Shown: positions 563 to 61,150, counted from the stretch's first letter. The stretch is 64,000 nucleotides of DNA from an uncultured Bacteroidales bacterium (GCA_963701785.1 CAVPBC010000002.1:2484458-2548457); one strand, 5' to 3'. Notes: generated by a model from the letters alone, not told the origin. Numbers and translations: made by a program.

Positions 563-596
563 TAATTCAAAAATTAAAATTCAAAATTCAAAATTA
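563..596. repeat. AT-rich heptamer tandem array (ATTCAAA/ATTAAAA units, about 4-5 copies)
   Basis: Read directly: aattcaaaaattaaaattcaaaattcaaaatta, between the divergent DUF4301-like gene and tRNA-Leu. Confidence 0.8.
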
Positions 597-600
597 TTTG

Positions 601-608
601 TACTTTTG
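601..608 (+). promoter_or_regulatory. Bacteroidetes-type -7 promoter box (TACTTTTG) for tRNA-Leu
   Basis: Matches TAnnTTTG consensus; 12 nt upstream of the tRNA 5' end at 621. Confidence 0.5.
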
Positions 609-620
609 CAGCCGTTTTAA

Positions 621-704
621 GCCCAGATGGCGGAAGTGGTAGACGCGCATGGTTGAGGGCCATGTAACCGCTCGGTTGTGCAAGTTCGAGTCTTGTTCTG
701 GGCA
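621..704 (+). tRNA. tRNA-Leu (anticodon GAG), type II with long variable arm
   Basis: Manual fold: acceptor GCCCAGA/TCTGGGC, D arm GCGG..CGC, anticodon stem CATGG/CCATG with loop TTGAGGG, long variable arm, T arm GCAAG-TTCGAGT-CTTGT, discriminator A; CCA not encoded. Confidence 0.9.
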
Positions 705-713
705 CTGTTCTTT

Positions 714-840
714 GAATGTTTAATGCTTAATGTTTAATGTTTAATGCTTAATGAGAAATGAGGAATTTAAATTAAATCTTTAAATTTTGAATCCATTAAT
801 AATTAAGCATTAAACATTCAACATTAAACATTAGACATTA
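714..840. repeat. Two opposed heptamer arrays (AATGYTT units and their complement) forming a long hairpin between the two tRNA-Leu genes
   Basis: 714-756 gaatgtttaatgcttaatgtttaatgtttaatgcttaatgaga; 795-840 is the complementary array; 714-731 is the exact reverse complement of 802-819 (18 bp). Confidence 0.85.
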
Positions 841-848
841 TCTAAGAT

Positions 849-932
849 GCCCAAATGGCGGAATTGGTAGACGCGCTACATTCAGGGTGTAGTGGGCGCA
901 CGCCCGTGCAAGTTCGAGTCTTGTTTTGGGCA
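849..932 (+). tRNA. tRNA-Leu (anticodon CAG), type II
   Basis: Manual fold: acceptor GCCCAAA/TTTGGGC, anticodon stem CTACA/TGTAG with loop TTCAGGG, long variable arm, T arm identical to the first tRNA-Leu. Confidence 0.9.
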
Positions 933-939
933 CTCGGAG

Positions 940-965
940 AGATGCCGGTTGAAAAGCCGGCATCT
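940..965 (+). terminator. Stem-loop directly after tRNA-Leu(CAG)
   Basis: agatgccgg-ttgaaaag-ccggcatct, perfect 9-bp stem, followed by ttaattt. Confidence 0.55.
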
Positions 966-1020
966 TAATTTAACACCAGAAACATTGGTACATATAATTG
1001 ACAAAAGAGTACAAAGAATA

Positions 1021-3696: not shown

Positions 3697-3733
3697 TTCT
3701 TTACTTTGTAAAAAACAGTTTAAATTAAAAACC

Positions 3734-5137: not shown

Positions 5138-5139
5138 GT

Positions 5140-5307: not shown

Positions 5308-5378
5308 TTGCCAGTTCTGATAAAGATGAAATTCGTGTGGCGAAAATAACTATATTTGAAAGATTGACAACGATAGCT

Positions 5379-6173: not shown

Positions 6174-6176
6174 CTC

Positions 6177-6256: not shown

Positions 6257-7041
6257 TTATAAATGTATTTCACCCTTAAGATATGTCACTGCTTTACCAC
6301 CGATATCCACCCTGTCGCCATTCAGTCGGCAAAAGATTAAGCCTCCGCGGCGTGAGAGCTGTCGGGCGTTCATCTCGGTTTTTCCCAGTTTTTCCGCCCA
6401 GAATGGAATGAGGACAGTATGGGCCGAACCGGTCACCGGGTCTTCGTCAACTCCCACACGAGGCGCAAAAAAGCGGGAGACAAAGTCAACTTTGTCACCA
6501 GGCGCAGTTACAATCACGGCACGGGCATCGGTCTTTTCCAGTCTGCGGAAATCCGGGATCAATGCCTCTATTTCCTTTTGCGATTTATAGAGAAGAAGAT
6601 AGTCCTCCTTTCCCCTGTAGCATTGCAGCGGGGTAATATTTAAAGATTGCACGAAATCATCGGGCAATGCGGTTCGTCTGGGGTTTATTGCCGGGGAAAT
6701 CCAGGATGAGAAGGTCGCCTTCCCTGGTCACATTAAGCAGCCCGCTCCTGGATTCAAATGAGATTATTCTCACCGCTAAATCCAAGATCGTGAAATATGA
6801 CATGCGCTGATGCCAGGGTGGCATGACCGCAAAGATTTACTTCGACTTTCGGCGTGAACCAACGGATATGAAATCCTTCATCTTTTTTAACGAAAAATGC
6901 TGTTTCCGAGAGGTTATTTTCCATGGCTATTTTTTGCATGGTCTCATCCGGGAGCCATTGCTCCAACGGACAAACCCCGGCCGGATTGCCGCCAAAAAGC
7001 CGGTCAGTAAACGCATCAACCTGGTAGAATGGAACTAGCAT
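6257..7041 (-). CDS. PhzF-family isomerase (YddE-like), two frame breaks
   Basis: N-terminus MLVPFYQVDAFTDRLFGGNPAGVCPL...SETAFF...RWFTPKVEVNLCGHATLA and C-terminus DPVTGSAHTVLIPFWAEKLGK are typical PhzF motifs. The middle (6668-6753) reads in another frame. Confidence 0.8.
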
Positions 7042-7078
7042 TTTAATTAAAAATTAAAAATTAAAAATTATAAATTCA
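7042..7078. repeat. Heptamer array (AATTAAA x about 5) filling the whole gap between the cyclase stop and the PhzF-like start
   Basis: tttaattaaaaattaaaaattaaaaattataaattca; the cyclase stop codon (7076-7078) sits in the last degenerate unit. Confidence 0.85.
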
Positions 7079-9019
7079 GCACTCAGATTCAACAATATAC
7101 ATATCTATTTCACCCTTGTTCTTTGCCTGTATCTTGCCCCGGTGGGTGCAGTTAAACCGTTCTTTAATAAACTCATAAGTGGTGCCGGAGATATTTACCT
7201 GGCCCGGGATGCCGCTTGATTCCATGCGGCTGGCCGTATTTACGGCATCGCCCCAGATGTCGTATGCAAATTTGTTTTTGCCGACAACACCGGCAACCAC
7301 CTGTCCCGTATGGATTCCGATCCTTAACTCCCAGTAATCCTTACCCTGATTTTCACGGTCAATTTTCAGTTGCTCCATGAATGCTTTGATTTCCAGTCCG
7401 GCCCTGACAATATCAACAGGATTGGAATCATTGGCAACAGGGATGCCACCGGCACACATATAAGCATCACCAATGGTTTTGATCTTTTCCAGGTTATGTT
7501 TGTCGATGATCTTATCGAATTCGAAAAAGCAATAATTCAATTCTTCGATCAATTGCTTGCGCGGTAAGTTTTTCGGCAATTTTCGTAAATCCTTTGAAAT
7601 CGGTGAACAGGACCGAAACTTTATCGTAATGCTTCGGGTGTTGCAGATGCCTTTTTCCTTAAGTTCATTGGCAGTTTCGTGAGGTAAGATATTTAAAAGA
7701 AGTTTTTCAGAGCGATCTTTTTCATCTTCAATGATTTTCTTGGTCTTCCTGACATATTTATAGCGGTTAAAAAGTCCAATGGCCATGACGAGCAGCAGAA
7801 ACCCTGTGCTGCCTGCGGCGTAAGTGGCAATTCGCTGCCGTTGAAGGCTTAATTCCTGAAGGGCATTATCCTTGGTAAGAAGATCGATATCACCCTGTTT
7901 CTTCTCTATATCATAACTCAACGTCATGAATTGAAGCTTTTTATCCATTTCTTCATTATAAAGAGAATCCTTCATAACAATGTATAATGCCTGGTATTTA
8001 TAGGCATTGGTATAATCCTTCGTTTTTGAATAAACATTTGCCAGGCCTTCGTATATTTCTTTCAGTTCATTTTTGGTCCTGATTTCTTCACCTGTTTTTT
8101 GCGCCTCCCGGTATGCAGCTATTGCCAGTGGAAGATTTCCCTGTGCATTAAATGTTTTAGCAAGCCCTAAAAAAGATTGTGTCATTTCAAGCTTGGCATC
8201 CAGGCTTTTAGCTCTTTCGATGGCTTCTTTCTGGAATTTGACTGCCTGCTCGTATTCACCCTGCCGGGCATATACTTTGCCTATATTATTCAATGTGTAT
8301 GCGACTTTAACGCTTTCGACTTTTTCATATGCTTCCAGGGAAGTGTTGAAATAGAACAAGGCTGAATCATACTGGTTCCTTTTTAGGAAGATTTCCCCCA
8401 TATTGACAGCTACTGTCCCGATGGCTTGATAATCCCCGAGTTCATTGCTGAGCGGAAGTGCTCTGTTATAAAATTGCAGGGCCATGTCATTTGTGGCTTC
8501 CTTATTGGAATAAACTGCCCCTATATTGACCAGTGCCGTGGCAATCCTTAATTTATCGTCAATTTCTTCAGCAACCTTTAAGGACTGAAATAGGTATTCG
8601 ATCGCTTTCGTGTCATCACCCTGGTTGAAATGGACCATACCGAGATTGTTTGACATATTGGCCACACCCACTTTTTCGCCGATAGAATCAAAAGTGCTTA
8701 ATGATTGTTGCCAGTAGATCAGCACATCGAAGTATTCCGCCTTGAAATAATGGCCCATGCCGATGCTTTTCAGGGCGTATCCCAATCCTCTTTTATAGTT
8801 CAGTTTTTCTGCAAGTTCTCTTGCCTGTGTGCCATAAAAGATGGTTGCTTCAGGATCAGAATTGACTAACCTGTTAGCGAGAGTGATAAGTGTATTAACT
8901 TTTGTGGTATCATCTTCGGCGCCAGCCACAACAGCTTTCAGACTGTCGATCTGGCTGTTTTGAGCAGAACACAGGGCAGAAATTAAAATAAAGGAAATGC
9001 ACAAAAGGAATTTTTGCAT
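7076..9019 (-). CDS. TPR-repeat / transmembrane / class III adenylate-guanylate cyclase, with an internal out-of-frame stretch
   Basis: Signal sequence, about 9 TPR-like repeats, one TM helix, then LLNILPHETANELKEKG and GDAYMCAGG...YDIWGDAVNTASRMES cyclase motifs. The expected FTDFKGFT metal-binding strand is readable only in another frame (about 7557-7632). Confidence 0.85.
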   Translation of the reverse strand: MQKFLLCISFILISALCSAQNSQIDSLKAVVAGAEDDTTKVNTLITLANRLVNSDPEATIFYGTQARELAEKLNYKRGLGYALKSIGMGHYFKAEYFDVLIYWQQSLSTFDSIGEKVGVANMSNNLGMVHFNQGDDTKAIEYLFQSLKVAEEIDDKLRIATALVNIGAVYSNKEATNDMALQFYNRALPLSNELGDYQAIGTVAVNMGEIFLKRNQYDSALFYFNTSLEAYEKVESVKVAYTLNNIGKVYARQGEYEQAVKFQKEAIERAKSLDAKLEMTQSFLGLAKTFNAQGNLPLAIAAYREAQKTGEEIRTKNELKEIYEGLANVYSKTKDYTNAYKYQALYIVMKDSLYNEEMDKKLQFMTLSYDIEKKQGDIDLLTKDNALQELSLQRQRIATYAAGSTGFLLLVMAIGLFNRYKYVRKTKKIIEDEKDRSEKLLLNILPHETANELKEKGICNTRSITIKFRSCSPISKDLRKLPKNLPRKQLIEELNYCFFEFDKIIDKHNLEKIKTIGDAYMCAGGIPVANDSNPVDIVRAGLEIKAFMEQLKIDRENQGKDYWELRIGIHTGQVVAGVVGKNKFAYDIWGDAVNTASRMESSGIPGQVNISGTTYEFIKERFNCTHRGKIQAKNKGEIDMYIVESEC

Positions 9020-9221
9020 GCCCAAAGATAATTAATTTCTGGAATGCAAGGCTACCCGGTTAACTGCTACAATGTGCTCTGTTTTGCCTGGATAGGACCT
9101 TAAGCAACTTTAAAAAAGATAAACAATTAAAAGATCGATTAAAAATCTGATCGGAAATTAAATTAAGCATCGAAATTCAGTAAATTTATTGCAGATTATT
9201 AACCACTTATACCTGACAAAT

Positions 9222-10703
9222 ATGAAAACCCTGAGATTTATAGTTATTCTAGCCGTCCTGATCTCCTGTAATCAAAAAATGGCCGGACAGCAATGCGAGT
9301 TTTGGACAGCGCCGGTTTCCCTGTCCGATTCCATGGAGGATAATCGAAATCCTTTCCTGGTCAGGATACCTGACGGTGACAACACATTTTATGTTTTCTG
9401 GGACAGAACGTTGGATGTCTTTGGCTCGGAAATCGTTTATATGGATTATTACAATATGGGTGTGCCGGAGACGGTGGTACTTGCGGAAGGTTATGACGTA
9501 AGCGGCACGCAGGTTATCTCAATGTGGAACTGGTACCCGTGGACAGATACCTTGGCATTTATATTTTATCAGACCAACCAGGCCGGGAACGAGGATATTT
9601 ATTATACCGTCATGACCTCGGGCGGATTTACAGAGCCCGCCCCTTTTGTAAATTCTGCTTTCGATGAGTCGCATCTGCGTGTTAGCAGGTCGGGAGGCAT
9701 AGTCTGGCAGGAAGGAGACATCATCAGGTACACTAAATTGAATCGGAATAGTTCCGGGTATTTTTTCGAACCGGCAACTGTAGTTGATGAGGTCAACTGC
9801 ATGAGACCCGTCATACATATTGCATCTGGTTATGAGCATGAGAGATTTATTTCATGGGAAAAAGGGAATCAGGACAGCAGCCAGGTGTGGTACACCTTAT
9901 GGAATTATCAGACTGAGAGTTGGGATGACCCGGTTTTATTATTTGAGGATGGGGCACATTCCAACCTGCGGTCACCGTCTGGCTATGAATACTCAGGGTG
10001 GGCTGCCGGCATAGTCTCGGACTGGCGCGACAGTATTGGAAATTATCATATCAGCGCCTATGATCTTGATGAGCAATATGAATTATTGTCAGATTTCTCA
10101 CAATCCATTCCTTTTCAGCCCGACCTTTTCACAGTTGATTTTATCACGCAGGATTTTATGGGATTCGGCTATTTTTCATTCAGGCATGATGAAGGAATGG
10201 GAAATTACGACATCTATTCCACCGACTGGGCAGATATCAGCCCATGGTTCAGTGCATACTGCCGGCTCGACAGTACGACAACATCCGAAGGCCATCCATT
10301 GCTATTTCAAGCTGCTGACTACGGCTGGTATTTCGACCTGGTCTGCATCTGGGAATCCTTCCGGAACGGCCACCGTCAGTTATTTACCAGTAAAACTGAG
10401 GTAGTTATTGGAAGTGTTTCGGAATCAAAAAACAAGAGTGACATCGATATCAGGGCATATCCGAATCCCTGTTCAGATCAAACCACTTTTGAATACGAAA
10501 TGAAGTCATCAGCAGACTGTAGGATCAGTATTTTCAACCACCTCGGCCATGAAATAGAAGTGCTGCCTCTTGGCAGGCAGGATGAAGGCAAACATCAAAT
10601 TAACTGGGACGCCTGGAAATATCCTGCCGGCTTGTATCACTTTCATTTATCGGCTGACGGACAGCGGGGAATCGGCATTGGAAAAATTTTAGTAGTTCGT
10701 TGA
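9222..10703 (+). CDS. Secreted hypothetical protein with T9SS C-terminal sorting domain
   Basis: Signal MKTLRFIVILAVLISC; C-terminus YPNPCSDQTTFEYEMKSSADCRISIFNHLGHEIEVL...LYHFHLSADGQRGIGIGKILVVR fits the type A CTD pattern. Confidence 0.7.
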   Translation: MKTLRFIVILAVLISCNQKMAGQQCEFWTAPVSLSDSMEDNRNPFLVRIPDGDNTFYVFWDRTLDVFGSEIVYMDYYNMGVPETVVLAEGYDVSGTQVISMWNWYPWTDTLAFIFYQTNQAGNEDIYYTVMTSGGFTEPAPFVNSAFDESHLRVSRSGGIVWQEGDIIRYTKLNRNSSGYFFEPATVVDEVNCMRPVIHIASGYEHERFISWEKGNQDSSQVWYTLWNYQTESWDDPVLLFEDGAHSNLRSPSGYEYSGWAAGIVSDWRDSIGNYHISAYDLDEQYELLSDFSQSIPFQPDLFTVDFITQDFMGFGYFSFRHDEGMGNYDIYSTDWADISPWFSAYCRLDSTTTSEGHPLLFQAADYGWYFDLVCIWESFRNGHRQLFTSKTEVVIGSVSESKNKSDIDIRAYPNPCSDQTTFEYEMKSSADCRISIFNHLGHEIEVLPLGRQDEGKHQINWDAWKYPAGLYHFHLSADGQRGIGIGKILVVR

Positions 10704-10828: not shown

Positions 10829-10871
10829 AAATAAAATGCAAAATGAAATGAAAAATGAAAAATGAAAAATG
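10829..10871. repeat. Heptamer array (AAAATGA units, about 6 copies)
   Basis: aaataaaatgcaaaatgaaatgaaaaatgaaaaatgaaaaatg; 20 nt from the tRNA-Arg 3' end. Confidence 0.85.
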
Positions 10872-10993: not shown

Positions 10994-12414
10994 TTAATAA
11001 TCGTATTCCAGTTTCATGGCAAGTCTCTGGTATTCCGTCAGGGTGGTCAGGTTGACCAGCGTGCTGTCGCCCTCGATGAGGCTTCTGTCGGAAAGCCCCC
11101 TGTTGATAGCATCTTCGAGTGATTTGAGCGCTTTGTCATACCTGCCTTGCCGCGTGTAATATTTAGCGAGAAAATAATACGGGCTGATTGCATCCGGTTG
11201 GGCCATCACCCAGATATCCAGGAAATATCTCGAAGTCGGTTGATATTCTGTACCCTGGACACTTTCATATTGCATGTGAGCAGTCCGCCATATGTAATCG
11301 ATCATTCTGCGTCCAAGTAGAGTATCCATCGGGCTATCAACCTGTTGCATCTTATCGTGGCAATTTTTAACTGTTCTTTCCACCAGGAATTTGGCTTGAC
11401 CGGGGTCATGCTGTCTTCGAAATTTATCCGGTAGCAGACAAAAGCATCTGCGTATTGAAGGTAATGACCGCGTTCTTCTTCAAGGATCATCCTCTGCTTT
11501 TTTATCTCTTTCTGAACCGCTTCGTTCTTATATAAATCATCCCGTAAAGTTTCAATTTCACTGGTATTCCTGACACCATGCAGGAAAGAAATGAGCTTTT
11601 CGCTTAGCTTATAGGCTTCATATGGTCTTTCCTCCCGGATCAGATCTGAAATAGCCTGGTGGTTTTCTTCATAATAATCCTCCCTCAATCCATAGTCAGT
11701 CCATTTTAATTCATTTTCCATGGCCCTGAATTCCATCCAGGTGACGGCTTCAGTAATATACCCTGCCGGAGGCCATTCATGTACTCCCGGGAATTCATAA
11801 ATATAATGGTTGATATTAAATTTGCCCAGCCAGTCGTCCAGGTTGTACATTTCCTGGTAATTGAAATCACGGTTACCAATGAGCCCGAAGTAATTGAATT
11901 CCAGGTCGAAATGGGGAGGGTAATTATTGGAGAAACCTGCCCCGCAGCCTATCACTCCTTCAAAAGTCCCGTAAAGTACGGCCAGTGAGGTGGCTACCCT
12001 GGCGCCACCGGAAAATCCCGCAGTATATCTTCGTTTCTGATCGATTTTAAAACGCGCCTCGGTATCTTTGAACATATTCTCTGCAGCTTTCAGGATGGGT
12101 GCCCACGGGCCGTTTTCGGATATATTACTACCTGCAATGATATAACCGTATTTTTCAGCCGCTTCCCGGAAAAGATCAACCGGTACCACACCCCTTGCTG
12201 CTGCATCGAAGGCATAGATCACGGGCCATTCTTCCACGTCGGATTCGTAATAATAACTTGGGAGATAGAGGGCGTAGGAATGACTGGAATCATTCATGCA
12301 AACCATATCCGGAATGACTTTTCCAGCTTCGATCTGCTGTCCGGCTGCAGGAACGGCCACTAAACCGGATAAAACAAGAAGTGTTAAAAATATGTGAGTG
12401 CGCCGGAAAATCAT
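10994..12414 (-). CDS. Secreted alpha/beta-hydrolase (esterase-type) with C-terminal TPR-like tail; one frame break near 11370
   Basis: Signal MIFRRTHIFLTLLVLSGLVAVPAAGQQ, nucleophile elbow GFSGG. ORFs 11302..12414 and 10994..11383 join as ...SWWKEQ/KNCHDKMQQVD. Confidence 0.65.
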
Positions 12415-12508: not shown

Positions 12509-12552
12509 GAAATTGAAATTTGGGATTTTGATTTTGGGATTTGGAATTTTAT
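12509..12552. repeat. Heptamer array (GGGATTT / TGATTTT / GGAATTT units) abutting the OLD-nuclease stop
   Basis: gaaattgaaatttgggattttgattttgggatttggaatttta, ending at the stop codon 12553-12555. Confidence 0.8.
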
Positions 12553-14254
12553 TTATTTGCCCGGTGCTTCCTTCGCCAGCCTGACACAAGCCTCAATCAA
12601 TTTCCTGAGTTGAGGCGGCACACCCGGGGAATCTTTGCGTGCGATAGCTTCCACGATAGCCACTGCCATATAAGGCTTTGAATTGCGATGGATAGCCCTG
12701 CCGATCACCCGGCGGGGATGCATGTTTTTACTGGCCTGAGCGGGGATTCCGGAGTACTCCTGGTAGATAGCTTCATACCCGTTGAAATAAAGGTGATTTT
12801 CAATGTCCTTCTCCCTGAACCGCATGCAATGGTCATCAGGATTGACACCGTAATGCAAGGCAAAATGCCTGGCCGTTTCAATATAGGCTTTGCCGGCTGC
12901 ATCCCCGTCAGCTAACAGGAACCAATCGATGCCAAGGAGGCGTGCCGATTTAATCAGGGGAGGAAGGCCACATTGCGCAAATTCAATGCATACGACGCCT
13001 TCTAATGACAGGTCGTAACCACAAAGCCTGGCCAGGTGGGGGAGAAGCCAGACTTCCGATTCCCCCTCGACCAGGAGCCAGCAACGTGCAAAAGTGGCTG
13101 TAGCTCATGCGCATGCGTACATGATAACTCAAACGGCGCAGTTCTTCGTGGGTCAGATTACCCGGTTGAACCCAATGTTGCTTGATATGGCCCTCATGTC
13201 TCGAGATCCTGCGGATATCCTCGAGTGGAAATCCTGACAGGAGGCTGCCTGACTGGGTGGTGATGATCTTCTGCCATTTCAGGCGTTCAATGAGCAATTT
13301 AACCGACTCGAGGGTCATGGGGTGCAGGTGTGCTTCCGGGTCTTCAATGATGAGGATCGGTTCAGCCGAGGGATCTGCCATCAGGCTGCCCGACTGGAGG
13401 AAAGCAGCCGTAAAAAGTAACATGCCTATTTTTTCGGCAGCAGAACCATGCCGGAATCCAAACTTTTTACCGGGATTCACTTGATTTGTTTTCTTTCGGC
13501 CAAGGATTTCATAAATGATCTGCTCCAGCTGTGGCCCTTCATGAAGCAAAAGGTTCGAAACCTGCCCGAGATATTGTAAAGCCGCACGATACCCTTCTTG
13601 CAACTCAGCACTTCCCCCTGGTGAAATTCCTGAAATCAGGCTCTGATAATAAAGACTGATTGTCTCTTCGAGTTTCCTGGCTTCTTCGGATGGGATATTT
13701 GATCCGGTCTCTTTTTCCTGGATGGCTTCACTTTCCTCCGGAATGTTGGCTAAAATGCCGCTCCTGATCCGGAAAACAGGATTCAGTCGCCTGATCCAGG
13801 CCAGAATCGCAGGATCATCCGAGTACCCATGCTGACTTTTTCCTTCTACTTTGATTAGCCATCGGGCTTCAGCCGATTCTCCGGATTCAACGGGGTTGGC
13901 TTTAACTTCCAGCGTTAATTCCTGTAATACGCCCCTGTCATCCTTAAGAACCAGGCCGAGTTCATTTTGTTGCATGAACGACCATTCATCAGGTTTTCTT
14001 TCACGGAATGCCAGGCGTATAAACAAAGGGCCGACGGGCTGGTATCCCGCTGGTCCGGTTACCATGAAAAAATCCTGGGGCTTGAAAACGATGGATTTGT
14101 TTTCAGGCCGTGGAGAAAGGATAAGGCAGATGGCTTCGAGCAGCGTGGTTTTACCTGAATCGTTTTCACCGATCAGAACCGTGGTTTCACCAATGTCGAG
14201 CCTGGCGGAACGGATGCCCCGGAAGTTTTCAATTTCAATGCGGCATAGATACAT
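12553..14254 (-). CDS. OLD-family ATP-dependent nuclease (YbjD/DUF2813-like: ABC-type ATPase + Toprim), one frame break near 13095
   Basis: N-terminus MYLCRIEIENFRGIRSARLDIGETTVLIGENDSGKTTLLEAI (P-loop), LIIEDPEAHLHP (Walker B/D-loop region). C-terminal frame reads ARCWLLVEGESEVWLLPHLARL...GIDWFLLADGDAAGK (Toprim E and DxD). Confidence 0.75.
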
Positions 14255-14986: not shown

Positions 14987-15028
14987 CGATAGGACGATAG
15001 GACGATTGGACGATTTGAAGATTTGATG
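14987..15028. repeat. Octamer array with stepwise drift (CGATAGGA, CGATAGGA, CGATTGGA, CGATTTGA, AGATTTGA)
   Basis: Read directly; starts 9 nt after the stop at 14978 and ends 16 nt before the gmhA ATG. Confidence 0.85.
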
Positions 15029-16328: not shown

Positions 16329-16896
16329 GGAATGGACACTGTTCCTCGATCGTGATGGGGTGATCAGCCGAGCGTATCCATGATGATTATATCATATCAT
16401 GGGAAGGATTCCGGTTCCTTGATGGGGTGCTGGAAGCCATGAGCATTATTCAGCAGGGTCTTTGGCCGTATCATTGTTGTCAGCAACCAGCAGGGTGTCG
16501 GCAAAAGGCCGGATGAGCGCGGAAAGCCTGAAATTGATCGATTTTAAGATGAAAAAAGCTGTCCGTGATGCCGGCGGCCGCATCGATGCTTCTTATTACA
16601 GCCCCCATCTTGCAACAGAAAACCATCCCGACCGAAAACCCGGGACCGGCATGGGACTGAAAGCAAAGGCTGATTTCCCGGAAATTGATTTTTCAAAATC
16701 AGTTATGGTCGGAGATACTGCCTCAGATATGGAATTTGGTAAGAGGTTAGGAATGATTACAGTTTTGATCTGTGATAACGACAACGAACCAGGATCAGAA
16801 TTAGCAGATTTGTTTTTTCAATCTTTGCGTGACTTTGCGATTTCTTTGCGAAACTTTGCAGTAACTAGTATTAACTTAATAACCAAACTCTCGTGA
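16300..16896 (+). CDS. gmhB: D,D-heptose 1,7-bisphosphate phosphatase (HAD-IIIA), two or more frame breaks; tail encoded by a tandem repeat
   Basis: [22 protein letters not shown] (HAD motif I), [13 protein letters not shown] (readable after a frame hop), [20 protein letters not shown]. Stop overlaps the next gene start (GTGA). Confidence 0.7.
16819..16862. repeat. Four tandem copies of a CTTTGCG/CTTTGCA unit (period 10-11), each resembling a -7 promoter core
   Basis: caatctttgcgtgactttgcgatttctttgcgaaactttgcag; lies in the gmhB tail, 31-74 nt upstream of the symporter GTG start. Confidence 0.75.
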
Positions 16897-23927: not shown

Positions 23928-24014
23928 ATGCCACTAACATTCTTCATATTTCATTATACCGCATTCTGCTATTCCTATCATCTTATACCTCGCCCAATCT
24001 TCATACCTTTGTGT

Positions 24015-34525: not shown

Positions 34526-34594
34526 CCGACCGCCGACCGCTGACCGCCGACCGCTGACCGCCGACCTCCGACCTCTGACCTCCGACCCCCGACC
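34526..34594. repeat. GC-rich heptamer array (CCGACCG drifting to CCGACCT/CCGACCC, about 10 copies)
   Basis: ccgaccgccgaccgctgaccgccgaccgctgaccgccgacctccgacctctgacctccgacccccgacc, in the divergent intergenic region between 34380 and 34689. Confidence 0.9.
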
Positions 34595-42500: not shown

Positions 42501-43636
42501 GCCTGTGTATATGCATCTTCCTGTGTCTTTCTCAGGCTGAGCGCTACATTGATATCGTTGATCCGCTGTTTTGCGTAATCTTCTTCAGGTTTAAAATGCA
42601 GGGCATTCTTATATTCGATCATCGCCCGTTCATAGTCCTGCTCGCTGAACAGCTTGTCGGCAAGGGCAATGGTAACTTCATAACTTGACCTGTTGGATTT
42701 GGAAATGTCCATCAGGGCAATGTCTATTTTTTCAAGCATGCTTTTCGGATATTCATCAGCAGGCTTGATAGACTGGGCCTGCAGGTATTTCTCCTGCGCC
42801 AGCTCAAATTCTTTCGATATATAATAATTATCCGCTTCTTCAATGATGGAGGCATAAGAATCCCAGGCAATTTTGAGATCCTGCGCCTCTGCAAGTTTCT
42901 GTTTCGGCAGATTTTCATCAGGCTTGAGCAGAATGGCCGCTTCCAGCAACCTGATGGCATCGTCATATTTATTTCTCGAAATAGCAAAATCGGCATCCTG
43001 AAGTAAGGATTCATAATTACTCGTTGCTGTATTACTTGCCGTTAATAATGTTTGGACCTGAATTGTTTTCTCTTTCGGGTATGCTTCTACAGGTTTAAGT
43101 TTGGCTGCGTTTTGATATTCAGCCAGTGCATTTTCCAGTTGTAAACCTTTCAGGAACAAATCGCCATTAATGATGCTCTTCTGGTATTTTTCCTCCAGGA
43201 GCCTGTTATCTTCCTGGGTCCTGGTTATCTCCTGCACCCGTCCGGTAGCATAGGCATCGTTTGGAATTATCGTCAATGCTTCCTGGTAAACCTTCAAAGC
43301 AGCATCAAGATCTTTCTTATCATACAGGTCATCTGCAAGCTGGACCTTCTGGGTGTAAAGGCTGTTTTGATACATCTGGACCTTGATCATGTCAAGGGAT
43401 TGCTGCAGGCGGTCCTTTGGATATTGATCTTCAGGCGCAAGCCGGACAGCAATCTGGTAAGAAGCTTTGGCGTTGATGTAATCCCCTTTTGTAAAGTAAG
43501 CGTCGGCCATTTCGATGGTCTTCCTGTATTCTTCAGGATTGTCCTGGGACTGTCCTGTAAAGGCAAAAAAAGCCAGCAAGATCAGCGATAAGAGCACCGT
43601 CTTATGTCGATAGGTCATATGTAGTTTTAGTAGCAT
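39539..43636 (-). CDS. Giant TPR-like repeat protein (about 20 units of a roughly 60-aa motif ending E.YP..KI.EIN..L) with a distinct about 130-aa C-terminal domain
   Basis: Signal/TM TVLLSLILLAFFAFTGQSQ (start may be Met at 43618). Repeat motif recurs along the protein; eight central units are near-identical. C-terminal domain of unknown family. Confidence 0.7.
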   Translation of the reverse strand: MLLKLHMTYRHKTVLLSLILLAFFAFTGQSQDNPEEYRKTIEMADAYFTKGDYINAKASYQIAVRLAPEDQYPKDRLQQSLDMIKVQMYQNSLYTQKVQLADDLYDKKDLDAALKVYQEALTIIPNDAYATGRVQEITRTQEDNRLLEEKYQKSIINGDLFLKGLQLENALAEYQNAAKLKPVEAYPKEKTIQVQTLLTASNTATSNYESLLQDADFAISRNKYDDAIRLLEAAILLKPDENLPKQKLAEAQDLKIAWDSYASIIEEADNYYISKEFELAQEKYLQAQSIKPADEYPKSMLEKIDIALMDISKSNRSSYEVTIALADKLFSEQDYERAMIEYKNALHFKPEEDYAKQRINDINVALSLRKTQEDAYTQAIARADNLFKEERYEEARDEYNRSIGIKSLEQYPKVKVDEINTILSNLAGNREVYNNLITGADRLFFSDEYVEAREQYRSASALFPKEQYPLDQITMINEILGIRDKYVKAVTNADQLMYDRDYEAALIEFRNAAGINPEEKYPQQKIQEIETILATNASKQASGGKNRDEIAGEENAITKQEYQEGIAAYQAEKVFEIDNDSVEQAALEVKNTQYLDAISVADLAMQSKNYQEALAGYQVALGLKAGESYAQRKIDEINGILGEIAANEALDKQYGDAISIADLAFQAKDYQKALAGYQAALGLKAGESYPQGKIDEINGIFGDIAAKEALDKQYGDAISSADLAFQAKDYQKAMAGYQAALGLKTGESYPQGKIDEINGILGDIAAKEALDKQYGDAISAADLAFQAKDYQKALAGYQSALGLKTGESYPQGKIDEINGILGDIAAKEALDKQYGDAISGADLAFQAKDYQKAMAGYQAALGLKTGESYPQGKIDEINGILGEIAAKEALDKQYGDAISAADLAFQAKDYQKALAGYQAALGLKAGESYPQGKIDEINGILGDIAAKEALDKQYGDAISAADLAFQAKDYQKAMAGYQSALGLKAGESYPQGKIDEINGILGEIAAKEALDKQYGDAISGADLAFQAKDYQKAMAGYQAALGLKAGESYPQGKIAEINVAIAEIARQEETRQEEIRKQKEIDEQYNLIIASADDFMKNEKYEEARAAYQEALTIKPAEEFPNKQVIEINRTLDALEAQRDQTYQITISKADNYFDQQDYEMAKLQYDRALELKPEELYPLDKLKLVNEQIMKKRQLIQEEYDKSIADADKFFASKIYDNAIESYRASILLKPEEEYPKEMVRRILKLLTERSIVQINKEPLLISNNTQHKFDFIPVPVKDRKSNYIFFRARNVSKDEYKLIISFGKDQTKNGGVVIKVPAGEDLFEFVVRISAQYKWFSDDNNWITFYPEGGDFEVSLMQISYSD
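40470..41870. repeat. Eight in-phase 180-bp tandem repeats (60-aa units) inside the TPR-like gene
   Basis: The motif cggccttcaggccgagggc recurs at 40501, 40681, 40861, 41041, 41221, 41401, 41581 and 41761. One adjacent pair I compared by eye had 12 mismatches in 180. Confidence 0.95.
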
Positions 43637-44488: not shown

Positions 44489-45822
44489 CTATTCATCCCG
44501 CAGACAGCGAACGATGAAACCGAAAACCTCGTCGTAGTTGCAGTCGTTTCGGTAAACTTCCGGGCCGGAGTAATCGAGGCCACGGTACCACGCTTCATTG
44601 TCGAGCGCCGTCGAAGTCCACCAGAAGCTGGTGAAGCCAACACCGTCGAAGTAACCCCTGTAGTCGCGGTAGCCACCCGGCATACCTGAGAAACCAAACA
44701 GGTCGGTGCCATTGCCGTTCCCGTACCATCCGCTGGTGGTCTTCAGGTTCGTCCCGGCATCATAGCCACGCCAATCCCAACCGTTGCCCCATTCCGGATC
44801 ACCGATTCCGTATTGGCTGTCCACCGCCCCCTCCAGCACTTTCCACTCCTCATCGGTGGGAAGGTGCCAGCCCGGTGGGCAGATGCCCTGGGTGCCTGGT
44901 TGAGTGGTGTATTGCATCATTTCGTTCCACTGGTAAAGGCCGCCGTATTTTTCGCAACTATCAGGCTCGTTGTTGTAACAGTACTTCTCAATGGTTCCAT
45001 TGTTCGATTGTCCCATTGTTCCAGGGATCATTTCGCCCACATTGAGATTTTCCTTTAGCCAGCACTGGCTGAAGATCTGGATGGTGTTGTACACCTGTCC
45101 TTCGTATTCCACCGTAGGTGTTCCCGGGCAGGGGATGTTGGTGGCGAACTGAAAAGTGTAGTTGGTGCTTTCCTCCGGGGAGTCCGGCATGCCGGATTGT
45201 AGGGTGTCTGTATAACCGATATACAGCAGTTCATCCCCCAGGCTGAAGGAGAAATCCTGGATATCCTTCAATGCCTTAAGCTGTGGGAAATAAGCCTCAC
45301 TACCGGTGTATTCAAGCGAGCGGTCCCACCTGAATGAAATCCTGCCTGCAGGATCTTGATACTGCTGCTCTGTCCCTGCCAATGGGCAGTGAAAAAACAC
45401 AGGTTTTCGGCACCTGGAGTGAAGCGGAAGGTGTGCTTTCCTCTATCCAACACTCTTTCAGTCTGAATCATCATTCGTCCCAGGATATCGGTCACGGTGA
45501 TGCTAACTTTTTCCTTCTCAGGAACATACAGCGATACGGTCGTCTGGTCGGCCACCGGATTGGGGTAATTCTGAAATACCTGGAACGCGCTCAGGTTTTC
45601 CGGAATTTCAGGAATCCCCACATAATAGATCGACAGCACCGTATCGGGATAATACAAGATTGTATCTCCTCCCTGGGTGCGGTTCATAATTTTAATGCTG
45701 TCGAGCTTTATGTAAGCAGTGCTGTTAACAGCGGTAAAACTCAGTTCCAGTGTGGTACGCTGTGAAAATAATCCCAACGAAACGAATGCAAAAGATGCCA
45801 TAAGGAATAATTTCTTTGACAT
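44489..45822 (-). CDS. FISUMP-domain protein with an N-proximal T9SS-CTD-like beta-sandwich; one frame break near 45360
   Basis: Signal MSKKLFLMASFAFVSLGLFSQ; NYPNPVADQTTVSLYVPEKEKVSITVTDILGRMM is CTD-like but internal. C-terminal CWLKENLNVG...GGLYQWNEMM...CPPGWHLPTDEEW...GFSGMPGGYR...FWWTST is the Fibrobacter paralogous (FISUMP) pattern. Confidence 0.7.
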
Positions 45823-47361: not shown

Positions 47362-48024
47362 ATGTCCCAGATTTCTAAACCTGTGAATTACCAGGAAAAA
47401 AGGACTGAAATGGTCCGCGACCAGATCCGGTTCCGGGGTGTCAAAGATGAAAAGGTGCTGAATGCCATGCTCAAGGTGGAACGCCACCTCTTCGTCCCGG
47501 AAGTTTACCGGGCAGAAGCATACGAAGATTACCCGCTTCCCGTCGGGGAAGGGCAGACAATATCCCAGCCTTATATCGTGGCCTTTATGACAGAAGCCCT
47601 TGAACTCGAACAAACGGACAAAGTTCTTGAAATCGGCACAGGATCAGGTTACCAGGCTGCTATCCTGGCCGAGATCTGCGATTCTGTTTTTACCATTGAG
47701 ATATTTCGGTCACTGGGCCTGTCAGCCATGAAAATACTTGACGAACTGGGTTACAGGAATGTCTTTGTCAGGATCGGCGACGGTTACATGGGATGGGAGG
47801 AACATGCCCCTTTCGATGCCATCATTGTCACCTGCTCGCCATCACATGTGCCCGAGAAGCTGGAAGCACAACTGGCGGAAGGGGGCAGGATGATCATCCC
47901 TGTCGGCGGGGATTACACGCAGGAGCTCATACTTTTAGTGAAAAAAGGCGGGAAACTGCAGAAAAAAAACGTGCTGCCTGTCAGGTTTGTTCCCATGATC
48001 AATGAAAAGGGGAAGAAATACTAA
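47362..48024 (+). CDS. pcm: Protein-L-isoaspartate O-methyltransferase
   Basis: GEGQTISQPYIVAFMTEAL, VLEIGTGSGYQAAILA, PFDAIIVT, GGRMIIPVG. Confidence 0.9.
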   Translation: MSQISKPVNYQEKRTEMVRDQIRFRGVKDEKVLNAMLKVERHLFVPEVYRAEAYEDYPLPVGEGQTISQPYIVAFMTEALELEQTDKVLEIGTGSGYQAAILAEICDSVFTIEIFRSLGLSAMKILDELGYRNVFVRIGDGYMGWEEHAPFDAIIVTCSPSHVPEKLEAQLAEGGRMIIPVGGDYTQELILLVKKGGKLQKKNVLPVRFVPMINEKGKKY

Positions 48025-48067
48025 CATTTCACATTGAGCATTGAACTCAGAACTCAGAACTCAGAAC
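48024..48067. repeat. Heptamer array with drift (ACATTTC, ACATTGA, GCATTGA, ACTCAGA x3) filling the convergent pcm/dnaB gap
   Basis: acatttcacattgagcattgaactcagaactcagaactcagaac; begins at the last base of the pcm stop and contains the dnaB stop (48061-48063). Confidence 0.85.
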
Positions 48068-49561
48068 GGCATACTATCCTCATCATCCAGATCCTTCATA
48101 TCATTCATCCTGGATGGCACAGTGCGGAGTTTTTCAGGCAGAAGTCCATCGCCAATCCCTGTATCAGTTTCAATGGCATCGTAATCGGAGAATCGGGCAT
48201 AGCGTGCGATAAATTTCAGGTTTCGTTCACCGAGCGGGCCATTCCTGTGCTTGGCAACGCTGATGACGGCAAGGCCATTGGTAGGTGTTCCATCTTCCAT
48301 CTCGTCGATCTGGTAATATTCCGGACGGTAAATAAAGAGCACAAGGTCGGCATCCTGTTCGATGGCGCCTGATTCACGAAGGTCGGAAAGAATAGGCTTT
48401 TTAGAACCGCCGCGGGTTTCAACGGCACGGCTTAACTGCGAAAGTGCCAGTACCGGGATATCCAGTTCCTTGGCGAGGCTTTTCAACGAACGCGAGATGT
48501 TGCTGATCTCCTGCTCACGGTTTCCCTGCCGGTCGTAATTCCCGGTCATCAGCTGCAGGTAGTCGACAAAGACCATTTCGATATTATGCTGGGCTTTGAG
48601 CCGGCGGCATTTTGCCCGGAGTTCGAAGATCGATAGGGCAGGGGTGTCGTCGATGAAGATCGGCGCGTCGATCAGGCGGCTGATCTTTGAATTGAGCTGT
48701 TCCCATTCGTAATCGGCCAGGTCACCCTTCCTCAGTTTTTCAGCGGGCAGTCCCGATTCCGCAGAGATCAGACGGGTAACCAGCTGTACTGATGACATTT
48801 CAAGGGAAAATACAGCTACCGGCTTTGTGAAAATCCACCGCCATATTCCTGGCCATGGTAAGGGCAAAAGCCGTTTTTCCCATACCCGGACGTGAGGCAA
48901 GGATGATCAGGTCGGAGCGCTGCCAGCCTGATGTCATCCGGTCGATTTCCGTAAAGCCGGATGGCACCCCGCGAAGCTCTGTCTGCTGGTTTTTGGCCGC
49001 TTCGATATAATGCAGTGCTTCCTTGACCAGGGTATTCATATCCATCGTGTTACGCCTGAGGTTGCTGTCGCTGACCGTGAACAGCCCCTGCTCGGCTTTG
49101 TCAAGCATATCAAAGACATCCATGGTGTCTTCGAACGAATCTTTGATGATTTCGGAAGAAATCCTGATCAGTTCCCGCTGGATGTATTTCTGGATGATGA
49201 TATGGGCGTGGTATTCGACATTGGCTGATGAAGCCACACGGTTGGTGAGCTGTGTAATATAATAAGCCCCGCCGGCCAGTTCAAGGTCGCCGGTCTTTTT
49301 GAGTTCACTGGTTACAGTAAGGATGTCAACCGGTTCAGAGCGACCGAATAAACTGATGATGGCGCTATAAATAGTCTTATGCTGGTCTTTATAAAAAACA
49401 TCAGGTTTAAGCATATCAATGACGGAAGTCAGGGCATCTTTTTCGAGCATGATTGCACCCAGGACGGCCTCCTCCAGGTCAACTGCCTGAGGCTGCACTT
49501 TCCCGTGCTCAAACGCGTTATCCTGAGAAGTGTCTTCTTCTCTCAAATCCTTTCCTGGCAA
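48061..49561 (-). CDS. dnaB: Replicative DNA helicase DnaB, one frame break near 48823
   Basis: N-terminal PQAVDLEEAVLGAIMLE; Walker A LIILASRPGMGKTAFAL; then after an extra base (aaaGccgg) PVAVFSLEMSSVQLVTRLIS...VDYLQLM...ALSQLSRAVE. Confidence 0.9.
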
Positions 49562-49742: not shown

Positions 49743-49791
49743 GACTAATGACCAATGACCAATGACTAATGACCAATGACTAATAACCAAT
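49743..49791. repeat. Heptamer array GACTAAT/GACCAAT x7
   Basis: gactaatgaccaatgaccaatgactaatgaccaatgactaataaccaat; encodes the last codons and the stop (49780-49782) of the minus-strand gene. Confidence 0.9.
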
Positions 49792-58322: not shown

Positions 58323-58515
58323 GGAATAAGACTTGCTTTTTGTTATTGCAAAAGTACTTAAAAAAGGAATAAATCAGTTTGCAGTTCGCAGGATGCATTA
58401 TGCTGAATCGCTACAATCACCCATTAAAATGAAATTGTCTCCCGGTTAATTTGCTTTTTACTCAAATAGCTTTTAACTTTACGCTTGAACCTTACGGTAA
58501 TGCTCATCCTTTAAA

Positions 58516-59294
58516 ATGAAACATTCTCTTAAAATCTTTGCCGTGCTTTTCATGACTTATCAAGTGATAAATGGTTCATGTTCTCTTATCGCACAACAAA
58601 ATACCATACAATTAGATGATTACAGGGAGCCATTCCTTGGGGATTTTAAAGGCACGATAATTTCGCATGAATGGGATGTTTACCATCCGGATGAAAATGA
58701 TACGATAGAAGGTTTAATAAATGTGTCAAAATTCCTGGGTTATACGGTTCAATCCGGGTCTAATTATATTGATATTGAACATAAGACTGGAATTACATAC
58801 GCCCCTTATTCTGCCGATTATGATGATTCCCAATGTGGCTGGACAATTTATTATACGGATGGCTTTTTGCACCCGACCATCAATAGTGCCGGGATATTAA
58901 CCTATCCTGAACTTACCGGTTGTGCAAATGGCAATTTAAACGGATATTGCGATGGCGACAGCATCTCCGTTGTCTACGGCAACTATAACCAGTGGGGAGG
59001 GTTCCGGATCATAATCAGGGGGAAAAGGGCTTCTTCAATCATTCATGATCCGGAATTGACTGAACCAGAACTTAAAGTATTCCCGGATCCCTGCACAGTT
59101 GAATTGTCAATATCTGGAGTAGATGTGCCTGCTGATTTTACTATTTCGGATATTGAGGGCAATATTTATATCTCAAAGAATATACGGGAAATAAAGTAAA
59201 TGTCTCTCCACTGACCCCCGGGCTATATTTCTTAAGGATTAACGATGGTGTCCAATATAAAACAGTTAAATTCATTAAAGGCAGTTCCAACTAA
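58516..59294 (+). CDS. Secreted hypothetical protein with T9SS C-terminal sorting domain, one frame break near 59190
   Basis: Signal MKHSLKIFAVLFMTYQVINGSCS. CTD begins VFPDPCTVELSISGVDVPADFTISDIEGNIY and continues in another frame: NVSPLTPGLYFLRINDGVQYKTVKFIKGSSN-stop. Confidence 0.6.
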
Positions 59295-59423
59295 GTCTGT
59301 CTATCAAATTTCTATGGGACAAATCTAAAGGTCGGATTAACATAAAATAGATGTAGCTAAGACTTTTGATACACCTTCAGCACCAATAAAATGGCTACAG
59401 CCTCCTGGTTCATTTGATTACCA

Positions 59424-59460
59424 TCTATTTCAACATTCAACATTCAACATTCAACATTAT
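59424..59460. repeat. Heptamer array (CAACATT x4 plus degenerate flanks) abutting the PspC-domain gene stop
   Basis: tctatttcaacattcaacattcaacattcaacattat; the stop codon 59457-59459 overlaps the last unit. Confidence 0.9.
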
Positions 59461-61040
59461 TTTCTTACAAGCCCCTCATTCGTCATGATGAACAACGTCC
59501 CGATCTTTTCACGGCGTGAAATATTTTTATGATATCCCATGAAAGGATGAAGATGGTCATCAAGACTTACAGCAATTCCTTCAGGAAGCTGCACCTCAAC
59601 GCGTGCTTCCTGTTTTCTCCATTTATCATCTTCTGGCACGACGAAACTGTCGGACAACAAAAGGGTGTCGTTTTTCATCTGCCAGTCATAGTTTATTCTC
59701 TCAGCTCTCTCCGTAGCCTCGTCTACAAATGCTCCCCTGGCCGCTGTAACAATTATCATCCGTGCCAGGCTGTCTTTACTGGGCTTGAATTTTAGCAGTG
59801 GAATACCGTAAAGCACGTTTTTATCATTGGTAACAGCCGTTCTCATTTCCGGGAAATAGAATACCCCGGACCTCTCCCATTCGAAATCTTCAGGGAGACT
59901 GCGGTCTACTTTGACATGTAATGTATCATGACTGATGACCTGCAAAATTGATTCCCTGCTGAATTCTCCGGGCACCCGAAATGAGTTGGCAACTTTAAAC
60001 CCGAATACCAGCGTGATAACCAGGGCGCAGAGCCAGATTATGCCAGCTATCCCGTTGATGAATTTTGCCCGCGGAAGGTTAAAGATAAGCCGGATACCGG
60101 CCCAAAGCATCATAAGCAAGGGTATCCCCGCAAGAACCATCATGCCTGTGGCAAAGGTGCGTAAATCGGCATCATTGCCAAAAATCCTCTCTGTGACTGA
60201 ATAAAGCGGGAATGCCTGCAGGCCGGCATCTTCCATCATTGCAACTACCGGGAAGCGGAATAATATCGACAGGTAAGCTATTGTTAAGGCAATACCCACC
60301 AGCAGGATCAAAATCCCCACGAAAATAAGCAGGATTCTCAGCAGCACTCTCCCAACTTCACCGAGACTATCGAGGAACTGGTCCCGATGATTGCTTTTAA
60401 ATTCCTCTTTCTGTGTCCGGTAGGTTGCCTTTGCCTTCGATGTGAAGTCGCTGATCTTATTTTTAATCTGATGCACCTCCTCACCTATTGATTTCTCGAT
60501 ATTGGAAATGTTGACCGGTTCTCCTTTCATTTCGAGCCTTTCGGCAGTAGTGCGTGCTTCCGGGACAACCAGCCAGAGGATCAGGTATACCAATACTCCG
60601 AACCCGGATATCAGAATGGAAATAATGAAAATGACCCTTACCCAAACCGGGTCCATGTTGAAGTAGGCACCCAGGCCGCTGCAAACCCCTCCGATCACTT
60701 TCCTTTCGGGATCCCGATAAAGCCTTTTCGGCATGCTGGCATAGGAGGGCTCATTCCCGCTTCCGGCGGATTCATCATCCATGGCAAAATCAGCCGGCTG
60801 ACCCAATATGGCAATCACTTCAGCGATGTCATCAATGGTAATTACTTCTTTACTGCCTGAGATCTTTTTTTGCAGGAGCTCGGCTATCCTGGCTTCAACA
60901 TCCGAGATCACTTCCTCTTTTCCTTCAAAGCCCCTGAAATGAGATTTGATGGCTTCAAGATAACGGTGAAGTTTTTCATAAGCATCCTCTTCAATATGGA
61001 AGACGAACCCGCTGATGCTGATTGTTAAGGTCTTTTTCAT
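59457..61040 (-). CDS. PspC-domain membrane protein (527 aa)
   Basis: RLYRDPERKVIGGVCSGLGAYFNMDPVWVRVIFIISILISGFGVLVYLILWLVVP is the PspC domain; further TM helices and a C-terminal extracytoplasmic region. Confidence 0.85.
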   Translation of the reverse strand: MKKTLTISISGFVFHIEEDAYEKLHRYLEAIKSHFRGFEGKEEVISDVEARIAELLQKKISGSKEVITIDDIAEVIAILGQPADFAMDDESAGSGNEPSYASMPKRLYRDPERKVIGGVCSGLGAYFNMDPVWVRVIFIISILISGFGVLVYLILWLVVPEARTTAERLEMKGEPVNISNIEKSIGEEVHQIKNKISDFTSKAKATYRTQKEEFKSNHRDQFLDSLGEVGRVLLRILLIFVGILILLVGIALTIAYLSILFRFPVVAMMEDAGLQAFPLYSVTERIFGNDADLRTFATGMMVLAGIPLLMMLWAGIRLIFNLPRAKFINGIAGIIWLCALVITLVFGFKVANSFRVPGEFSRESILQVISHDTLHVKVDRSLPEDFEWERSGVFYFPEMRTAVTNDKNVLYGIPLLKFKPSKDSLARMIIVTAARGAFVDEATERAERINYDWQMKNDTLLLSDSFVVPEDDKWRKQEARVEVQLPEGIAVSLDDHLHPFMGYHKNISRREKIGTLFIMTNEGLVRK

Positions 61041-61150
61041 TATATTGATATATTGTTAAATTGTTAGATTGTTATATTGTTCCAGTGTTCGTCTTCCACG
61101 TCCCATCAGTCTCCCAGTCTTCCAGTCTTACAGTCGTTACAGTCGTAGCG
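61041..61150. repeat. About 14-unit octamer array that morphs from TATATTGT to CAGTCTTC/CAGTCGTT, bridging the PadR stop and the PspC start
   Basis: tatattga tatattgt taaattgt tagattgt tatattgt tccagtgt tcgtcttc cacgtccc atcagtct cccagtct tccagtct tacagtcg ttacagtcg tagcggtc. Confidence 0.8.

Follow-up and report, generated by a model that had tools for sequence, protein, structure and literature searches.

The 64,000-nt stretch of DNA analysed here (the window; GCA_963701785.1 CAVPBC010000002.1:2484458-2548457), from an uncultured Bacteroidales bacterium, contains a set of imperfect tandem arrays with short repeat units, many of which lie directly against stop codons. Several open reading frames (ORFs) of the window carry the type IX secretion system (T9SS) sorting domain Por_Secre_tail, which indicates that the genome belongs to the Bacteroidota, and the closest named relatives of the window PspC are metagenome-assembled genomes (MAGs) designated "Bacteroidales bacterium". 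Using Tandem Repeats Finder (period 6-11, at least three copies, score of at least 40), 17 arrays were identified in the window, with a period of 7 in ten, 8 in five and 10 in two. The same criteria returned no arrays in any of 30 dinucleotide-preserving shuffles of the window or in 50 kb of E. coli K-12. The array density of the window is 2.66 per 10 kb, compared to a mean of 0.67 per 10 kb in 80 unrelated Bacteroidota loci. Most of these background loci contain no array, the density is patchy across Bacteroidota, and some MAGs are very array-rich (12 arrays in 18 kb of L013). All 13 array loci listed earlier by inspection of the DNA (the sequence-only reading) were recovered with the units given there, as was their resemblance to the short tandemly repeated repetitive (STRR) elements of cyanobacteria in being short-period tandem repeats; two further loci were found at 44994-45023 and 61527-61556.

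Five stop codons of the window lie in arrays. Four of them, in the cyclase (7076), dnaB (48061), D-TA-like (49780) and PadR (61106) genes, had been pointed out before and were confirmed, and the PspC stop (59457) is the fifth. An AATTAAA array (4.6 copies, 7042-7078, minus strand) fills the 34-nt spacer between the cyclase, whose TGA lies within it, and the start of a PhzF fragment (7041). PCMT and dnaB converge on a 36-nt spacer that is filled by the array at 48024-48067 (minus strand), which reads gttcTGAgttcTGAgttcTGA in the dnaB sense and has the dnaB stop as one of its units. The ATTGGTC/ATTAGTC array (7.9 copies, 49743-49791, minus strand) prolongs the end of the D-TA-like gene, running on from its final conserved codons and its stop (ATTGGTTATTAG), and a TGTTGAA array (PspC sense, 4.3 copies, 59424-59460, minus strand) begins at the PspC stop TAA in a convergent spacer. 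At 61041-61150 (minus strand), an array in 8-nt register extends over the tail and stop of PadR and on through the PadR-PspC spacer, with GACTGTAA-type units on the stop side and AACAATNT units on the start side, reaching the pspC ATG. This locus had been described as TATATTGT drifting to CAGTCKTA; the drift is present, and the locus represents one array with a positional gradient.

The other window arrays occupy more varied positions. Co-directional spacers hold the arrays at 7042, 49743 and 61041, as well as three others: a GGGATTT-type array (12509-12552, minus strand), which begins 3 nt past the stop of the ORF 12553-12858 and is 94 nt from the next start; a CGATAGGA array with stepwise drift (14987-15028, plus strand), which starts 8 nt past the stop at 14978 and fills the spacer to a SIS-domain gene; and CTTTGCG repeated at 10-11 nt spacing (16819-16862, plus strand), which codes the tail of a HAD/GmhB-like ORF. 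A third convergent spacer contains AAAATGA (5.9 copies, 10829-10871), 19-20 nt from the 3' end of tRNA-Arg. Two opposed arrays, six copies of AATGYTT followed by 6.7 copies of the reverse complement AAACATT (714-840, plus strand), fill the spacer between two tRNA-Leu genes. Two arrays lie in divergent spacers: AATTCAA (4.6 copies, 563-596), which precedes the start of a minus-strand DUF4301 ORF (77-556) by 7 nt and tRNA-Leu(gag) by 25 nt, and CCGACCG (10 copies, 34526-34594), in the middle of a 486-nt spacer. Within ORFs, GAKGCGGG (6.8 copies, 24708-24770, plus strand) forms a 54-nt in-frame insert in an FG-GAP/T9SS ORF, and GTTCCATT (3.8 copies, 44994-45023, minus strand) lies in a Fib_succ_major ORF. 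The sequence-only reading had placed its loci at gene 3' ends; this fails for the two arrays in divergent (5'-5') spacers, and the stop-touching arrays at 7042-7078 and 61041-61150 also reach a start codon.

Three copies of the 10-mer TAAATATTTT (61527-61556) lie upstream of padR beside a palindrome with a 12-bp stem (61501-61530, TTTAGTACTATGcaataCCATAGTACTAAA). Since the sequence of this triplet is conserved in the relatives L005, L007 and L008, it is probably a PadR operator or promoter, separate from the array family; similar triplets are present in L068 and L088. The ORF 12983-14254, which adjoins the array-flanked small ORF 12553-12858, has DUF2813, AAA_15 and AAA_21 domains (OLD- or AbiEii-like ATPase) and is a possible defence gene.

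Array placement was analysed in a pooled set of 1.4 Mb with 120 arrays, comprising the window, a non-redundant set of four close relatives, and 80 PspC loci from distant Bacteroidota (at most 41% PspC identity, among the matches listed). The period was 7 in 60 of the 120 arrays and 8 in 31. Coding sequences (CDS) account for 88% of the pooled sequence and contain 18 arrays, with the remaining 102 located outside; the array density in CDS is 0.015 per kb, and in spacers it is about 50 times higher. Convergent spacers showed the highest density (1.17 per kb), followed by co-directional (0.65) and divergent (0.43) spacers. In co-directional spacers, the median gap was 5 nt to the upstream stop and 44.5 nt to the next start, and 29 arrays were closer to the stop against 9 closer to the start (p = 0.0017), a comparison that is conservative because start calls err upstream. 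Convergent spacers have no promoter on either side, and their arrays still abut a stop, with a median gap of 2 nt to one of both stops (Kolmogorov-Smirnov test against uniform placement, p = 0.0009). No hugging of gene ends by arrays was observed in the divergent spacers of the pooled set. The proposed association with 3' ends is therefore statistically sound against these nulls. About 30 of the 86 background arrays (distant Bacteroidota, L011-L090) lie just upstream of padR or downstream of pspC (positions ~8900-9600 and 11550-12300), against about 18 expected from length alone, a figure not corrected for intergenic space.

An alignment of 36 stop-proximal arrays on the stop codon revealed that in most of them the stop forms one of the units, or a variant that differs from a unit in a single base. 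Examples include dnaB, the D-TA-like gene (ATTGGTTATTAGtcattggtcatTAGtcat), L070 (TAGacttctTAGacttctTAG) and L008 (TGAtcaggTGGtcaggTGA). The unit of the D-TA-like array extends the gene's own conserved last codons (VIGY*). In PadR, the conserved core ends near residue 112 and is followed in four lineages by mutually unrelated tails of 18, 21, 4 and 9 residues; in the window, the last 18 residues are coded by the array. Coding of C-terminal residues by arrays, suggested previously for three proteins, was found for PadR and the GmhB-like protein; the overlap of the D-TA-like array is confined to the last conserved codons. The accompanying suggestion of slippage-driven variation in C-termini agrees with the PadR tails when lineages are compared, but not with comparisons of contigs from the same strain.

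An array that overlaps a stop, or is at most 10 nt away from one, is oriented relative to the abutting gene. Read in the sense of that gene, 27 such arrays have more G than C and 6 more C than G, making the sense strand C-poor, and stops in all three frames occur in the sense direction only in 13 arrays and in the antisense direction only in 3. At distances of more than 10 nt from the stop, neither the base-composition bias nor the stop-content bias was seen in the pooled arrays. Start-proximal arrays lean the opposite way (C over G in 13, G over C in 4). Arrays in these genomes are real, excluded from CDS, depleted near starts and concentrated at stops, where they include the stop codon; a self-terminating orientation is found only where translation can reach them.

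The array between PadR and PspC belongs to a widespread family with the unit AAGACTGT. In the window, L001, L092, L093 and L008 (63% PspC identity for L008), an array of AAGACTGT/AGGACGGG units contains the PadR stop, and toward the pspC ATG the array drifts in constant 8-nt register into AACAATNT. In L092 and L008, the same unit also occurs at the infC stop, again in sense orientation but on the other DNA strand. When metagenomes were scanned for three perfect copies of AAGACTGT, 54 loci were found on contigs of 32-63% GC, a count for this 8-mer alone. The AAGACTGT array abuts a stop in sense at 21 loci and as the reverse complement at 3 (p = 0.0003). The gaps to the stop are quantised (-2, -10, -18 and -26 nt), their values matching the position where the array first has TAA in frame, and the array-coded peptide KTVRL* ends five unrelated proteins. 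AAGACTGT provides TAA in every frame within three units, and its complement ACAGTCTT is free of stops in all frames. A composite sequence, GGACTGTAGGACGGGAGGA, occurs at two loci of L008.

On the metagenome contigs L105, L133, L144, L146, L098 and L103, arrays of this family are very long, comprising 19-31 units with a higher-order alternation of AAGACCGT, AAGATAGT and AGGACTGT, and in L110 and L148 the array directly follows an (AGT)n trinucleotide tract. Downstream of the variable arrays, a conserved TAACAATCAA(T/C)AT motif is located 10-15 nt upstream of the rpmI (L35) start in L002, L008, L091, L092, L093 and L094; it may be a leader or regulatory element of the infC-rpmI-rplT operon.

Across nine lineages, nearly all (7-9) have arrays at the PspC stop, at the infC stop and in the PadR-PspC spacer. 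The array units at the infC stop are wholly different among L002, L005 and L008. At the PspC stop, L005 (68% PspC identity) has the TGTTGAA unit at the matching site. Units are also shared between sites: 11 identical heptamer pairs were found against 2.7 ± 1.4 expected, and GACCAAT occurs at three non-orthologous sites in three genomes. This unit resembles TTGGTCA, reportedly an STRR unit (Mazel et al. 1990). The earlier view that each array has its own unit thus describes most window arrays but misses the recurrence of units above chance and the place of the PadR-PspC array in the AAGACTGT family. Single-base steps along arrays, also reported before, are present in some of them. The mean number of mismatches per unit rises from 1.13 at lag 1 to 1.46 at lag 4, compared to a flat 1.34 with the unit order shuffled; stepwise drift as a general property of arrays was rejected, as the per-array test was not significant.

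Inverted copies of an array's own unit are present within 400 nt in 21 of the 120 arrays, compared to 4.2 for permuted units. The opposed arrays at 714-840 are predicted to fold as RNA into a hairpin of about 45 bp (ΔG -44.9 kcal/mol, z = -9.7). They make up almost the whole spacer between the tRNA-Leu genes with gag and cag anticodons (621-933), and the modelled hairpin could be a processing site of the tRNA precursor. An Rfam search of the window identified three tRNAs and no other RNA family. In L021, L035 and L070, the stop is followed by the array, an inverted copy and a T-run, an arrangement resembling a long hairpin with a T-run. Intrinsic terminators (a GC-rich hairpin followed by a T-run) were rejected as an explanation of the window arrays: sites resembling canonical terminators show no enrichment there, and no such site coincides with an array. 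Rho-utilisation (rut) sites were ruled out because the stop-proximal arrays are C-poor in the sense strand, the opposite of rut.

By type, the arrays are long simple-sequence repeats with 7-8-nt units, that is, members of the class LSSR(5-11), which is named STRR in cyanobacteria. We favour, with reasonable though not high confidence, the explanation that they are products of slippage or template switching which are filtered by selection and kept where translation self-terminates. Replication slippage in a 7-8-nt register would generate the arrays, and intrastrand template switching would copy them to give the inverted partners. Tandem duplication adds DNA and does not overwrite the flanks, and the position of an array therefore tells where it was seeded or tolerated. 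For the same reason, growth of arrays until the free space is filled was rejected on logic as a cause of stop-hugging. Purifying selection on where arrays survive would instead shape their placement. Near a stop, duplication of a 7-8-mer together with the stop, or insertion of an array carrying a stop triplet, would cost nothing as long as the sense strand of the unit has a stop, and no other site would offer this. With a period that is not a multiple of three, a stop appears in every frame within three units, so the protein gains a few residues at most.

Such a self-termination filter would explain the stop-hugging, the stop codon as a repeat unit and the variable C-terminal tails of PadR; the C-poor sense strand would follow because C is absent from stop codons. 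Beside ATGs, the unit variants that persist would be restricted to G-poor, A-rich ones, in agreement with the leader composition of the clade, and only AACAATNT and AATTAAA are found among the window arrays that abut starts. At least some arrays (D-TA-like, dnaB) continue the local sequence. A safety net of stops in all frames was rejected as the selected function, given that the bias reaches only 10 nt, many arrays lack stops and the arrays far exceed the length required; all-frame stops are retained as a tolerance filter. For the most part, the arrays are probably filler that is tolerated and has no dedicated function, and a minority, such as the inverted-pair hairpins or A-rich leaders, may have been co-opted.

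Several observations weigh against this explanation. The slippage event itself was not observed: contigs of the same strain from different samples are 99.9-100% identical through the arrays and show no copy-number differences, a weak comparison because the contigs compared are essentially identical. The 21 genes upstream of sense AAGACTGT arrays represent 18 unrelated families, and the AAGACTGT-to-AACAATNT architecture is kept across lineages down to 63% PspC identity. Neither the presence of AAGACTGT at these gene ends, nor the conservation at PadR-PspC and infC-rpmI, nor the excess of shared units is explained by the self-termination filter, and a purely neutral model of local seeding also leaves the shared units unaccounted for. 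In addition, the gene models came from an in-house ORF caller with approximate starts, and the pooled set is centred on one neighbourhood, pspC.

It is possible, though we consider it unlikely, that the arrays, or at least unit families such as AAGACTGT/AACAATNT, are functional RNA or DNA elements, namely oriented multivalent binding sites in 3' untranslated regions and intercistronic spacers for a single-strand-binding protein (S1-, Csp- or KH-like) or an RNase. Binding would then govern how stable the mRNA is, how it is processed or how the following cistron is translated, and such a role has been put forward for the TAACTGA repeats by MacGregor (PMC4679880). The constant sense orientation of AAGACTGT at the PadR and infC stops, which lie on opposite DNA strands, would be expected of such elements, as would the architecture retained at 63% identity, the 21:3 orientation at 18 unrelated gene ends and the recurrence of units above chance. 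The 5-mers AACAA and ACAAT are also about four-fold enriched upstream of starts, in a gene set that is redundant with orthologous loci; for this redundancy, AACAAT was not accepted as a general leader motif. However, most window arrays have their own unit and share no common motif, arrays also occur in divergent spacers, between tRNAs and in CDS, and CACTGTTT is present in L005 in both orientations relative to transcription. The orientation bias is predicted by the self-termination filter as well and vanishes beyond 10 nt. No regulatory role was found by Rehm et al. (PMC4692102) for the heptamers that they analysed.

A broader proposal would treat AAGACTGT-type families, with their drift in register into AACAATNT, not as passive products of slippage but as spreading, orientation-specific, self-terminating 3'-end or intercistronic elements, copied to the stops of unrelated genes or kept there as multivalent sites for an RNA- or ssDNA-binding protein, and would join them with the cyanobacterial STRR, the Xanthomonas GGGAATC and the Beggiatoaceae TAACTGA repeats in one cross-phylum class; we regard it as improbable. 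The copying component taken alone, that is, insertion of preformed arrays at new sites rather than their birth from local sequence, appears more doubtful still. The mechanism would be dedicated or semi-dedicated; candidates are a switch of template into abundant donor arrays at TAA/TAAG microhomology and an enzyme activity of the reverse-transcriptase or telomerase type. Identical 8-mer arrays abutting 18 unrelated genes on contigs of 32-63% GC would fit such spread, together with the two composite GGACTGTAGGACGGGAGGA loci of L008 and the three non-orthologous GACCAAT sites. Nevertheless, neither terminal repeats nor target-site duplications nor an accompanying enzyme gene were seen, the arrays at the D-TA-like gene and dnaB clearly extend local sequence, and the metagenome counts cover the AAGACTGT 8-mer alone.

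We consider it very unlikely that the arrays are contingency loci, in which slippage in copy number would act on neighbouring genes by phase variation, switching or tuning their expression or their C-termini. Arrays do overlap coding 3' ends, the PadR tails vary between lineages, and several short contigs end within arrays. The last point is a known assembly effect of repeats (MacGregor 2015, PMC4679880), and 100%-identical contigs from different samples showed no copy-number differences. Moreover, the arrays are imperfect, they lie mostly at 3' ends or in operon spacers rather than in promoters or 5' coding regions, and their neighbours are housekeeping genes (dnaB, infC, tRNAs).

The window does contain genes split into pairs of ORFs, including dnaB (48061-48900 and 48800-49561), thrS (61614-62741 and 62747-63478), a PhzF-like gene (with a 95-residue fragment at 6754-7041) and the FG-GAP/T9SS gene (23928-26305), which reflect either frame-breaking assembly errors or many pseudogenes in the organism. 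Although splits in essential genes such as dnaB and thrS might suggest that the arrays are assembly or sequencing artefacts of a noisy MAG, we give this next to no credence, since independent ENA, JGI, Logan and NCBI assemblies with PspC orthologs (53-93% identity) have 1.4-5 arrays per 10 kb at matching spacers and finished genomes hold comparable repeats (MacGregor 2015, PMC4679880; Rehm et al. 2015, PMC4692102). Repeats of another kind are found in a 1365-residue TPR-repeat ORF (39539-43636, minus strand), where a 180-bp unit is present in 7.4 copies with 92% identity (40476-41811); the near-identical 60-residue repeats suggest recent expansion.

Heptamer-type arrays have been known in cyanobacteria since 1990 and were catalogued across prokaryotes in 2007. 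The sequence-only reading knew of no description of such repeats in Bacteroidota and took their position at stop codons to be new; both have precedents. Huang and Mrazek (2014, PMC4060949) found runs of at least three tandem heptamers (pattern 7n3) to be over-represented in Bacteroidetes, and MacGregor (2015, PMC4679880) reported intergenic TAACTGA and, sharing its spacers, "other heptamer direct repeats" in five Bacteroidetes (Flexibacter litoralis, Paludibacter, Gramella forsetii, Aequorivita and Elizabethkingia). Proximity to stops has been described for the GGGAATC heptamers of Xanthomonas and the GGGGAYT heptamers of Nostoc PCC 7120 (Rehm et al. 2015, PMC4692102), which are about 90% intergenic, lie on average 28 nt from the upstream ORF and 160 nt from the downstream one, and many of which are very near to or overlap stop codons. 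In the same work, the G-rich strand was the coding one when the repeat followed a stop and the non-coding one when it preceded a start, and convergent spacers were preferred over divergent ones. Inverted pairs were present, the position was kept between relatives with length and sequence varying, and no function was identified. The arrays described here share with these heptamers the stop proximity, the strand rule, the preference for convergent over divergent spacers, the inverted pairs and the positional conservation. In contrast, the Xanthomonas and Nostoc repeats have one dominant G-tract unit capable of forming G-quadruplexes, with four units preferred, whereas the window arrays have many units, mostly AT-rich and without G-quadruplex potential, 8-mers are common, and the host belongs to a different phylum.

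The cyanobacterial STRR sequences are tandem 7-bp units in intergenic or intercistronic positions, for example between hupS and hupL, with hairpin-forming capacity and unknown function (PMC2670836). The window and pooled arrays are likewise tandem heptamers in spacers and capable of forming hairpins, but the STRR hosts are heterocystous cyanobacteria. A second, possible difference is that STRR sequences comprise a few unit families per genome, each at many loci; most window units are distinct, even though units recur above chance and AAGACTGT is widespread. The TAACTGA repeats (Beggiatoaceae, cyanobacteria and the five Bacteroidetes) are similar in being intergenic, orientation-specific heptamers that break contigs and have a unit with stops in the forward orientation. 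However, they lie mostly 1-43 nt upstream of starts, unlike the mostly stop-anchored window arrays, and the window contains no match to TAACTGATAACTGA with up to two mismatches. As cited in later work, the LSSR(5-11) survey of Mrazek, Guo and Shah (2007) describes tandem units of 5-11 nt that are longer than expected by chance, with heptamers the commonest and a patchy distribution across phyla, and proposes polymerase slippage (the footprint idea) as their source. The pooled arrays agree with it in the lead of heptamers, and the window arrays in exceeding chance; the comparison is with a survey-level description.

All features of LSSR and heptameric simple-sequence repeats that were compared are present in these arrays: occurrence beyond chance, the lead of heptamers, a non-coding bias with the lowest spacer density between divergent ORFs, stop proximity with a G-rich coding strand, and positional conservation. 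The window arrays are thus another case of a known, functionally unexplained kind of repeat. New aspects are how diverse the units of a single genome are, how prominent 8-mers are among them, the explicit self-termination filter proposed here, which has a range of 10 nt, and the AAGACTGT-to-AACAATNT family at many unrelated gene ends.

The window adds an uncultured Bacteroidales-like clade with dense arrays to the lineages that accumulate heptamer arrays. For annotators of Bacteroidota MAGs, this means that arrays which lengthen or alter C-termini, break assemblies and create spurious ORFs are to be expected. The pooled analysis offers a simple, testable account, in which arrays persist where translation is terminated by the array itself, and the residue represented by AAGACTGT makes the question of filler versus element directly testable.

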